A stretch of 64,000 nucleotides of DNA, from positions 25,668,001-25,732,000 of the forward strand of contig NC_135887.1 in assembly GCF_964194155.1 (NCBI RefSeq), read 5' to 3'. Below, one piece after another: positions 22,755 through 46,839 of this stretch. The stretch comes from Cetorhinus maximus. Lineage: Eukaryota. A program made the translations under genes and the position numbers. Numbering within the stretch: position 1 is the stretch's first letter; every line of letters begins with the position of its first letter. The notes beneath the pieces are model-generated. The model ran no database searches. It saw only the letters and a list, made by a program, of their open reading frames with translations, and was not told where the DNA came from.

Positions 22755-22818
22755 ATGGCCGACAGAGTCAGCAACAGCACAGACTATACAACTATTGAAA
22801 CCACTAACACAACCACAG
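22755..22818 (+). CDS. Kinase gene, candidate first coding exon (short Thr-rich ectodomain)
   Basis: [21 protein letters not shown] with sequons NST and NTT; phase-1 donor G|GTAGGC matches the TM exon; candidate acceptors at 22725 or 22554. Confidence 0.5.
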
Positions 22819-46800: not shown

Positions 46801-46839
46801 CAGAACACCTATGTCAAGGGCTGGCTGGATTCAGTCTGA
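22755..46839 (+). CDS. Single-pass STYK1/NOK-like receptor tyrosine kinase-family protein, probable pseudokinase (about 440 aa, 11 coding exons)
   Basis: join(22755-22818,32640-32745,33718-33901,34949-35087,37070-37168,37251-37408,42113-42244,44195-44309,44749-44848,45837-45936,46714-46839) = 1323 nt, all GT-AG, phases consistent, no internal stop. TM segment [23 protein letters not shown]; kinase motifs [43 protein letters not shown]...ERP. The start codon and first exon are less certain than the rest. Confidence 0.85.
23045..23626 (+). repeat. (CT)n-rich tract containing an assembly gap
   Basis: CT/CA-rich low complexity with an N run; similar tracts at 26240-27602 and 32050-32600. Confidence 0.9.
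23627..26235 (+). mobile_element. PIF/Harbinger transposon relic with a degenerate 3-exon Myb/SANT-like DNA-binding gene
   Basis: [12 protein letters not shown]..., [34 protein letters not shown]|gtaagt ... cag|[16 protein letters not shown]...[13 protein letters not shown]; long S/P-rich last exon ending [12 protein letters not shown]; frameshifts and an internal stop at 25194; no DDE transposase seen. Confidence 0.85.
25556..25933 (-). pseudogene. H2B: Histone H2B retrocopy (intact 125-aa ORF, tailless), probably decaying
   Basis: [24 protein letters not shown]...NSFVNDIFE...[34 protein letters not shown]; CpG-type changes at invariant sites (ERIA>ECIT, SRL>SHL, TAV>TTV); no stem-loop or poly(A); flanked by TAAGAAGA direct repeats (25557-25564, 25953-25960). 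Confidence 0.85.
26240..27602 (+). repeat. (CT)n-rich tract with gaps and a LINE 3'-tail fragment (about 26645-26800, minus)
   Basis: Low complexity; nested GGGATGTGGGC...ATTTATTGCCCATCCCTAATTGCCCTTGAGAAGG. Confidence 0.85.
27893..28720 (+). mobile_element. Harbinger Myb/SANT relic, 5' part (second copy)
   Basis: Similar to 23635-24300: [20 protein letters not shown]...[24 protein letters not shown]|gtatgg. Confidence 0.8.
29640..31030 (+). repeat. C-rich minisatellite (GCTGGATCATCCCCCCC...), G-quadruplex/i-motif prone
   Basis: Dozens of CTGGATCATCC cores separated by C5-C10 runs; gives the spurious Pro-rich ORFs 29569-31072. Confidence 0.93.
31030..32050 (-). mobile_element. Harbinger Myb/SANT relic, 5' part (third copy, inverted)
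   Basis: ORF 31616-32044: [61 protein letters not shown]; terminus GGCGGAATTGTCC on the minus strand. Confidence 0.82.
32640..32745 (+). CDS. Kinase gene, transmembrane exon
   Basis: TTTTGCAG|...[35 protein letters not shown]...|GTGAGT; phase 1 to phase 2. Confidence 0.8.
33718..33901 (+). CDS. Kinase gene, juxtamembrane exon
   Basis: 184 nt, open in the required frame: [37 protein letters not shown]...TQSLQ; basic stop-transfer residues follow the TM segment. Confidence 0.75.
33910..34280 (+). repeat. About 25-bp minisatellite (GTATACACAACTGGGGTATATCTGT)
   Basis: About 15 tandem copies directly after the juxtamembrane exon. Confidence 0.92.
34285..34890 (+). mobile_element. CR1 3' fragment
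   Basis: [19 protein letters not shown]...[44 protein letters not shown] tail. Confidence 0.8.
34949..35087 (+). CDS. Kinase gene exon (subdomains I-II)
   Basis: [50 protein letters not shown] flanks. Confidence 0.88.
35165..35935 (-). mobile_element. DeuSINE copy with an internal 33-bp minisatellite expansion (35455-35820)
   Basis: Deu-domain-like flank (TTCAAAATAGCACCATGGAATC...CCACCTGAGAGGG) plus tandem CCCTCAGTACTGACCCTCCAACAGTGCAGCACT. Confidence 0.75.
36205..36605 (+). repeat. Low-complexity CCCCATTCATTA / CCCCATTCAGT repeat
   Basis: Short degenerate tandem units. Confidence 0.85.
37070..37168 (+). CDS. Kinase gene exon (alphaC, subdomain IV)
   Basis: [33 protein letters not shown]. 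Confidence 0.9.
37251..37408 (+). CDS. Kinase gene exon (subdomains V-VIa)
   Basis: [19 protein letters not shown]...[18 protein letters not shown]. Confidence 0.9.
37444..41757 (+). mobile_element. Gypsy/Ty3 LTR retrotransposon with both LTRs (37444-37694, 41512-41757) and a 5-bp TSD GGTAC; degenerate gag, RT, RNase H and integrase
   Basis: TG...CA LTRs; PBS-like TGGTGCCAGC at 37695; PPT TTGGGGGGAGA before 41512; TSD at 37439-37443 and 41758-41762; [11 protein letters not shown] (RT), [10 protein letters not shown] (RNase H), [15 protein letters not shown] (integrase); stops and frameshifts. Confidence 0.93.
39492..40084. mobile_element. MITE (Harbinger-like non-autonomous element) nested in the Gypsy pol
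   Basis: Imperfect ~22-bp TIRs GGCCTGAATTTTTAGGTCGGCG and CGCCGAGCTAAAACTTCTGCCC; 3-bp flanks AAT/ACT; interrupts pol at the ADTLS-like motif. Confidence 0.7.
42113..42244 (+). CDS. Kinase gene exon (catalytic loop; DFG replaced by EFS)
   Basis: [44 protein letters not shown]. Confidence 0.93.
42780..43432 (+). repeat. 44-bp minisatellite (CAGTGTTATACAGTGACAGACCTGTCCCCACCAGTACTGTACCC), about 15 copies
   Basis: Period checked at 42852 and 42896; same unit at 62422-62695. Confidence 0.95.
43436..44115 (-). mobile_element. CR1 3' fragment
   Basis: ORF 43592-43918 [27 protein letters not shown]...[10 protein letters not shown]. Confidence 0.85.
44195..44309 (+). CDS. Kinase gene exon (subdomains VIII-IX)
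   Basis: [44 protein letters not shown]. Confidence 0.93.
44749..44848 (+). CDS. Kinase gene exon (subdomain X)
   Basis: [33 protein letters not shown]. Confidence 0.92.
45110..45395 (+). mobile_element. DeuSINE fragment with 2-3 copies of the 33-bp unit
   Basis: AGTGCTGCACTGTTGGAGGGTCAGTACAGAGGGAG...AATATTTATCCC...GTGAAAGGCTCTACAGAAATGCA. Confidence 0.6.
45658..45793 (-). repeat. Two copies of the 69-bp minisatellite unit, inverted relative to 2554-5447
   Basis: CCTGTCCTGGGAGTGTTTGATGGGGACAGTGTAGA occurs twice. Confidence 0.85.
45837..45936 (+). CDS. Kinase gene exon (subdomain XI)
   Basis: [39 protein letters not shown]. Confidence 0.92.
46175..46625 (+). repeat. 33-bp minisatellite (same unit as 17080-17395), about 13-14 copies
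   Basis: GTCAGCACCTTCAGGAACTGTCCCCCAGTGAGA tandem array in the last kinase intron. Confidence 0.95.
46714..46839 (+). CDS. Kinase gene terminal exon (Tyr-rich tail)
   Basis: [53 protein letters not shown]. Confidence 0.8.
   Translation, partial: DYIQVDDCIEQYQLLNTSPPWTLPQPAYVQNTYVKGWLDSV

Follow-up and report, generated by a model that had tools for sequence, protein, structure and literature searches.

A probable receptor tyrosine pseudokinase of Cetorhinus maximus and its apparently undescribed jawed-vertebrate family with glutamate fixed at the DFG aspartate

The window analysed here is a stretch of 64,000 nucleotides from Cetorhinus maximus (GCF_964194155.1, contig NC_135887.1, positions 25,668,001 to 25,732,000), and positions are counted from its first letter. 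On its forward strand, at 22755-46839, it contains a gene for a membrane protein resembling a receptor tyrosine kinase (RTK), in which the aspartate of the DFG motif is replaced by glutamate and which is a probable pseudokinase. The coding sequence of 1323 nt (440 residues and a stop) is distributed over 11 exons (Table 1), and all 10 introns have GT-AG borders. An earlier note, made from the letters of this DNA alone, had described the reading frame as intact; this is borne out, and the model is identical letter for letter to RefSeq XP_078404438.1 (P0001), an automatic C. maximus model named 'tyrosine kinase receptor Cad96Ca'. The motifs picked out in the earlier note (VTCK, the Glu174 of helix alphaC, EFS and PPE) were found at the positions given, as was the layout of two ectodomain sequons, one transmembrane helix, a Tyr-free activation loop and a C-terminal DSV. 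The term 'orphan' suits the gene as far as the literature is concerned, but not the databases, since NCBI and UniRef carry automatic models of it under misleading names. Searching the shark's own genome with exon 6 gives a single strong locus, and with the whole protein the strong exon matches all fall at this locus, barring unrelated intronless kinase frames; the gene therefore appears to be single-copy.

The letters encoding EFS are genuine. Contigs from two runs of which the kind is not on record, and which read through introns (X7 and X11), extend into the flanking introns and show zero differences inside exon 7, while those of two further runs on a single sample of a related species (X1 and X2, RNA-like by guess) match exon 7 alone, with 1 synonymous change. 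The agreement of all four runs rules out the sequencing error that the earlier note had named as a possible objection. Beyond exon 7 the loose ends of the X1 contig (1189 bases) match where exon 6 ends and where exon 8 begins, giving a 6-7-8 splice, and the same contig holds exon 6, exon 11 and the 3' untranslated region (UTR) with 449 letters between the two exons, equal to 2 + 447 bases of exons 7-10. These joins and this spacing show that the gene is transcribed and spliced in a related species. In relatives, spliced transcripts are likewise implied by several family proteins for which Logan contigs of 1.4-2.3 kb are the sole source. None of the sequencing runs listed for this stretch is recorded as RNA, and over 15.5 kb the contig matches were swamped by repeats and showed pieces of one contig but zero exon joints.

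A search with the shark protein returned 96 proteins at E <= 1e-40, of which 91 are members of one family. They come from sharks, rays, a chimaera, bichir, sturgeon, many teleosts, coelacanth, lungfish, caecilians, salamanders, the saltwater crocodile and the gharial; gar, axolotl and a second teleost copy came to light in a profile search. No mammal, bird, squamate, turtle, frog or cyclostome member was among the hits, which is a non-detection and not a proven loss, as the search relies on shared words and 50% representatives may hide members. The suggestion of a gene lost in mammals agrees with this as far as mammals go, but the gene survives in crocodilians. The crocodilian sequence groups with that of a caecilian (support 100/98), as expected of a true orthologue, and the family tree as a whole is species-like. 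Orthology is also supported by linkage. In mis-fused gene models the bichir gene adjoins a POLDIP2-type gene and those of two teleosts a TMEM97/EBP-type gene (names that in part we presume), and the best shark-genome matches of these neighbours lie on the same contig as the shark gene, at distances of 0.74 Mb and about 11 Mb. The database names 'Cad96Ca', 'FGFR homolog 1', 'FGFR3-like', 'SRK3' and 'Fer-like' thus mask one orthologous family, whose teleost members bear the zebrafish clone name si:ch211-167j9.5 in UniRef. Several teleosts (P0083, P0127, P0159, P0171, P0177) have a second, more divergent family copy, and in some of these the catalytic loop has decayed further.

This is accordingly a real gene conserved from shark to crocodilian. 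Repeats fill its introns, and that, together with the want of a listed RNA run, is what one might expect of a decaying pseudogene or of a sequencing or annotation artefact; the open frame, canonical splice sites, spliced contigs, orthologue set and species-like tree refute such an explanation, the probability of which is negligible.

Residue conservation was counted in an alignment of 74 family members, with 37 invertebrate relatives as the comparison set. The DFG Asp is Glu in 74/74 members and Asp in 37/37 relatives. Of 93 family proteins fetched, 76 read EFG, 14 read EFS and 3 lack the exon, giving Glu in 90/90 that cover the position. The change from DFG to EFS put forward in the earlier note is thus family-wide with respect to the Glu, but the motif of the family is EFG (76/90) and EFS is mostly an elasmobranch variant, present in 10 of 11 elasmobranch proteins (one catshark fragment has EFG) and recurring in four teleost proteins. 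Three further positions are altered. The first Gly of the Gly-rich loop, rightly called degenerate, is Lys (K134) in 74/74 members, the Val of β2 is Phe (F141) in 72/74 and Val in none, and the Ala of VAIK is Thr (T158) in 74/74; the invertebrate relatives have Gly in 35/37, Val in 37/37 and Ala in 36/37, respectively. These three positions face the ribose and adenine. For the AxK Ala, an orientation towards the nucleotide is described in two papers (PMC4042850; PMC12862963).

The other catalytic residues are retained. K160, E174, H253, D255, R259, N260, F275, P299 and W302 are invariant in 74/74, among them the β3 Lys, alphaC Glu and catalytic-loop residues that the earlier note had listed as kept. 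The P-x-RWYPPE sequence is likewise invariant in the 74 members, although its PPE in place of APE is not a sign of inactivity, since MuSK-type and ROR-type frames of the same genome read RWMPPE. The activation segment has a net charge of +5.3 in the family compared with +0.5 in 102 DFG kinase domains, and contains Tyr in 9/74 members compared with 89/102 of those domains. The Arg of HRD is replaced in 56/74 members; sharks keep the canonical HRDLAARN. A basic, mostly Tyr-free activation segment combined with HRD Arg replacement is consistent with a loss of control by loop phosphorylation.

The domain is of the tyrosine kinase type (PF07714, E 4.9e-60). An AlphaFold model built with a family-only alignment had a poor N-lobe and a mean predicted local distance difference test score (pLDDT) of 63, which a deeper alignment raised to 80. 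The resulting model is a confident bilobed kinase, with pLDDT mostly >90 over residues 121-400 and lower in the activation loop, and its closest folds are KIT, FGFR2 and RET (TM-score ~0.84). Over the kinase domain (~280 residues) the shark protein shares 200-249 identical residues with its counterparts from eight further elasmobranchs and 135-159 with those from the bony vertebrates compared. The juxtamembrane region of those bony vertebrates has 4-14 identical residues of 43-64, so that the kinase is far better conserved, a pattern suggestive of purifying selection on the kinase fold. Two conserved loops are specific to the family, residues 147-156 (G-x-C-K-G-H before β3) and 264-270 (F-P after β7, with a one-residue insert), and these are candidates for a partner-binding surface. 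The shark protein and P0002, from two shark species, have one hinge residue fewer at residues 207-208 (VSRNL against VGSRNL in other elasmobranchs), which shortens the linker between hinge and alphaD.

Having lost the DFG Asp, the protein falls under the sequence definition of a pseudokinase while keeping the VAIK Lys and HRD Asp, in agreement with the earlier note. Judged from these motifs, the shark protein likely has little or no catalytic activity, and the family as a whole is probably inactive. The D-to-E change at DFG alone is reported to abolish measurable twitchin kinase activity (PMC4042850). Why Glu should be kept at this position is a puzzle that has also been raised for titin kinase (PMC12862963). 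It is conceivable that Glu274 coordinates a metal, perhaps Mn2+, in a remodelled pocket, making the protein an atypical active tyrosine kinase of low or narrow activity and without activation-loop control. The other catalytic and substrate-Tyr-binding residues are indeed invariant (74/74) across jawed vertebrates, the Glu is fixed and not drifting, and sharks keep HRDLAARN; but with three further bulky or charged substitutions at adenine- or ribose-facing positions, a motif Gly that drifts to Ser in 14/90, and the inactivity described for titin kinase and D-to-E twitchin kinase (PMC4042850), an active enzyme seems unlikely.

Outside the kinase domain, one hydrophobic segment is found in 69/71 scored members and two in none. 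The ectodomain has a median length of 23 residues, is rich in Ser and Thr, gives no Pfam match and is modelled with pLDDT <50; a sequon is present in 56/69 members. The folded ligand-binding ectodomain of RTKs is therefore lacking, although STYK1 and LMR are counted as RTKs without one (PMC4898815). Lys and Arg residues number ~4.7 behind the transmembrane helix and 0.7 before it, from which a signal-anchored, N-out protein is inferred.

In the C-terminal tail Y401 is kept in 71/74 members, and acidic residues upstream with hydrophobic residues at +1 and +3 in 69/74. It aligns gap-free with the tyrosine of QEYLDL in FGFR1, Y766 in the numbering of the 822-residue chain, and the intron preceding it is common to RET, FGFR, VEGFR and TIE. 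Kinase-inactive FGFR1 with phosphorylated Y766 is reported to raise PLCγ1 activity ~three-fold (PMC9203054), and Drosophila Cad96Ca is described as signalling via PLCγ (bioRxiv 10.1101/2025.06.02.657513). The idea of a Tyr-rich tail as a trait does not survive, as Y411, Y427 and Y432 are not conserved in the 74-member alignment; nor does that of DSV as a PDZ ligand, this ending being found in 9/74 members only and hence not a family trait.

The reading that we favour, at a probability of roughly 0.55, is that of a membrane scaffold with a RET/FGFR/TIE-type fold, likely catalytically dead or nearly so, which would act independently of ligand or depend on a co-receptor and be phosphorylated in trans on Y401. 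The lack of a signal peptide, the short ectodomain and the basic residues behind the helix suggest that it would sit N-out/C-in and bind no large ligand alone. Glu at the DFG Asp, together with the Lys, Phe and Thr substitutions of the Gly-rich loop, β2 and VAIK, would probably prevent productive binding of Mg-ATP. Switching by phosphorylation of activation-loop tyrosines would not be expected, and the basic loop may touch membrane lipids or a partner. More tentatively, and by analogy with FGFR1 Y766, a partner RTK or a Src-family kinase could phosphorylate Y401 (acidic-Asp-Tyr-hydrophobic-x-hydrophobic) and so recruit PLCγ or a similar SH2 protein.

Several points weigh against the scaffold. 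The invariant catalytic set exceeds what most known RTK pseudokinases keep, and invariance of all its residues, from K160 to W302, argues for strong selection on the active site, where some chemistry may remain. Simple loss does not account for a Glu that is itself invariant. The evidence for expression comes from contigs of one related-species sample and from the Logan-only proteins of relatives, and the conservation of Y401 could reflect packing. In another arrangement, a dead kinase would use its kinase surface to activate or restrain a partner RTK allosterically, and Y401 would be structural. G149, G153, F266-P267, RWYPPE and Y313, surface motifs found in this family alone, are invariant, while ectodomain, juxtamembrane region and tail diverge, and HER3 and STYK1 are said to work on partners of the EGFR family (PMC13259870). 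The acidic and hydrophobic context that Y401 keeps in 69/74 members speaks against this arrangement, which we regard as improbable.

The resemblance to STYK1/NOK noted earlier does not extend to orthology. A motif search located two STYK1-type genes elsewhere in the genome, on contigs C15 (near 38.43 Mb) and C3683 (unplaced), which share one exon plan. What NCBI names STYK1 in this species is the C15 gene, which groups with the 'STYK1-like' sequences of turtle and newt, whereas the C3683 gene groups with frog STYK1; the names of the shark STYK1 genes may thus have been swapped, and Styk1-like, though reported lost in amniotes, may survive in a turtle (P0112). The protein studied here is 26% identical to the C15 STYK1 compared with 34-37% to insect Cad96Ca-type kinases. 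Careful trees were made from 33 and 31 rows chosen for diversity, a 63-row tree being run in quick mode only. In both careful trees the family and STYK form separate 100/100 clades, each with a long stem. In the approximately unbiased (AU) test, applied to the STYK1-like branch and to the STYK clade as a whole, nesting within the former is rejected (p-AU 1e-5), and a position as sister to the latter is not (p-AU 0.22). The STYK exon plan, with HxD to SDV in one exon and no intron after β4 or alphaI, is not that of the present gene, which shares 3/7 kinase-region introns with STYK genes. The presence of two other STYK1-type genes, the rejected nesting, the identity and the introns exclude a 1:1 STYK1 orthologue. 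A separate, little-studied lineage, as the earlier note had proposed, is upheld by phylogeny, AU test, introns and the HRD, EFS and E174 of this gene against HGD and GL[GS].

Brunet et al. (2016) describe 63 RTKs in 20 subfamilies, including a Styk1/Styk1-like pair; for Styk1-like they report presence in fish and amphibians and loss in amniotes (PMC4898815). As the C15 and C3683 genes fill this pair, the present gene is probably additional to it. It could otherwise be the Styk1-like of that census, catalogued and uncharacterised, an identity that would be compatible with a scaffold mechanism. Its architecture is the same, the reported range and amniote loss come close to the range of the family (PMC4898815) and fit it about as well as they fit the C15 gene, the other candidate itself occurs in a turtle (P0112), and a sister position to all STYK is not rejected; against these stand the two places already taken, the rejected nesting, the 26% identity and the 3/7 introns, and we consider the identity rather unlikely.

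The deeper origin was approached through seven kinase-region introns, read from this genome and compared by position and phase. Same-phase counterparts are found for 7/7 in TIE and VEGFR, 6/7 in RET and FGFR and 3/7 in STYK, with 2/7 one codon off in the alignment. The family lies outside the TIE/RET/FGFR/VEGFR clade (support 94/96); sister to RET is rejected (p-AU 0.007), while sister to the whole RET/FGFR/VEGFR group is not (p-AU 0.22). At other loci this genome carries RET, an FGFR, a VEGFR and two TIE genes. An orthologue of RET is thereby rejected, as is one of TIE, FGFR or VEGFR, because the protein does not group with one of them and lacks their ectodomains. In the best trees the family falls, on a long stem (1.06-1.13), among invertebrate kinases of the Cad96Ca type, a placement that is weakly supported (86/47; 65/29). 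These results point to an origin somewhere within the RET/FGFR/TIE/VEGFR/Cad96Ca/STYK radiation. A possible history, which we offer with some reserve, is that of a separate jawed-vertebrate RTK subfamily, missed by the 63-gene, 20-subfamily census, as the vertebrate remnant of the Cad96Ca/Stitcher lineage: it would have lost its ectodomain and fixed EFG before the shark/bony-fish split, kept a PLCγ-type tail Tyr, and been lost in mammals and kept in crocodilians.

A search made without subscription journals and supplementary tables did not find a published description of the family. The papers listed for Cad96Ca are by title invertebrate studies, bar one chicken paper only citing an insect study, and the zebrafish clone names are absent from the text of Brunet et al. 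(PMC4898815). The lineage is ancient and apparently undescribed, though annotated in databases. The jawed-vertebrate RTK set has been treated as closed (63 genes, 20 subfamilies; PMC4898815), and an extra ancient lineage would change the count. It would also be a second, independent case, after titin kinase, in which EFG is fixed while every other catalytic residue stays intact, making the question of why Glu is kept testable in a different fold context. The ray-finned-fish orthologue under the clone name si:ch211-167j9.5 opens direct genetics.

Table 1. Exons of the gene and other features of the window.
Feature	Position	Strand	Description
Exon 1	22755..22818	+	Start codon; ectodomain rich in Ser and Thr, sequons at N7 and N18; without separate signal peptide
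Exon 2	32640..32745	+	End of ectodomain and single transmembrane helix (~residues 31-55; model helix 31-61)
Exon 3	33718..33901	+	Basic stop-transfer residues; juxtamembrane region, poorly conserved, low-confidence (likely disordered)
Exon 4	34949..35087	+	β1-β3; first Gly-loop Gly replaced by K134 (34994-34996), β2 Val by F141 (35015-35017), VAIK Ala by T158 (35066-35068); catalytic K160 (35072-35074)
Exon 5	37070..37168	+	alphaC with invariant E174; β4
Exon 6	37251..37408	+	Hinge, alphaD, alphaE; no kinase insert
Exon 7	42113..42244	+	HRDLAARN (H253-N260), EFS (42182-42190), basic and Tyr-free activation loop
Exon 8	44195..44309	+	P-x-RWYPPE P+1 loop (invariant), alphaF
Exon 9	44749..44848	+	alphaG region
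Exon 10	45837..45936	+	alphaH, alphaI
Exon 11	46714..46839	+	Tail with conserved Y401 (46717-46719), aligned with FGFR1 Y766; elasmobranch-only DSV end; stop
3' UTR	to 47227	+	Contig match running on past exon 11
Upstream neighbour	1..2241	-	Large BEACH-domain exon (domain match); presumably WDR81, a name that fits the domain
Downstream neighbour	51177..55437	+	TSR1/BMS1-family gene, start and AARP2CN exon (AARP2CN 54970-55437); taken to be TSR1, a name that fits the domain
Degenerate LTR retroelement, intron 6	37444..41757	+	Terminal repeats 37444-37694 and 41512-41757
Histone H2B-like frame, intron 1	25562..25933	-	Complete, 124 codons (Pfam Histone E 2.7e-20)
Transposon-like stretch	~23640-25570		Adjoins the H2B-like frame
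Long tandem repeats	2644-5469, 29640-31030, 46170-46620		Yield low-complexity open frames

The terminal repeats of the long terminal repeat (LTR) element in intron 6 align with 222 identities and 24 mismatches. In run X2 one contig joins a donor at 38050-38068, within the gag-like portion of this element, to exon 7 (42113), apparently in frame, while in X1, a run on that sample too, exon 7 follows exon 6. The element is also present in that related species, and its donor possibly belongs to a retroelement-derived alternative first or cassette exon. The H2B-like frame of intron 1 has the appearance of a histone copy that was captured or has strayed, and several positions that are usually conserved are changed in it.

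Among known systems, STYK1/NOK and Styk1-like are alike in a very short ectodomain, one transmembrane helix, a degenerate DFG and no known ligand, and STYK1-type proteins are the top ESM Atlas feature neighbours of the sturgeon orthologue, which was used as the query. They differ in exon plan, contig and sequence, and have GL[GS] and HGD without the alphaC Glu and tail Tyr, in contrast to the EFS, HRD, E174 and Y401 of the shark gene. Invertebrate kinases of the Cad96Ca/Stitcher type (insects, chelicerates, molluscs and amphioxus) are the best single-domain matches outside the family, and share RW in the P+1 loop, EP[YF] before β5 and a tail Tyr (36/37), some also having short ectodomains (P0247, P0257). 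They keep GxGxFG, AxK, HRD and DFG, however, and are typical active kinases. Insect Cad96Ca presumably has a cadherin ectodomain, which the present family is without. Cad96Ca has been called a 'cadherin-like RTK' (bioRxiv 10.1101/2025.06.02.657513). The closest solved sequences and folds are those of TIE, RET, FGFR and VEGFR (FGFR1, E 1.6e-44), which carry Ig, cadherin, EGF or FN3 ectodomains where the shark gene has none. Titin kinase, described as inactive and as the sole kinase in human whose DFG motif carries Glu (PMC4042850), similarly combines the fixed Glu with a non-Ala residue at the AxK position, but it is a CaMK-group domain of a sarcomeric giant and the likeness is convergent. RYK, PTK7 and ROR1/2 are RTK pseudokinases that keep the Lys, alphaC Glu, catalytic Asp and Asn with an altered DFG (PMC13259870), and in RYK the first Gly of the Gly-rich loop and the Ala of AxK are changed too and the pocket is occluded (PMC13259870, Table 2). 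They differ in their Wnt-related ectodomains and insulin-receptor ancestry, ROR1/2 lying far away in the tree. The working mode of the shark protein may be likened to that of STYK1 or RYK as described in PMC13259870, although it belongs to neither subfamily.

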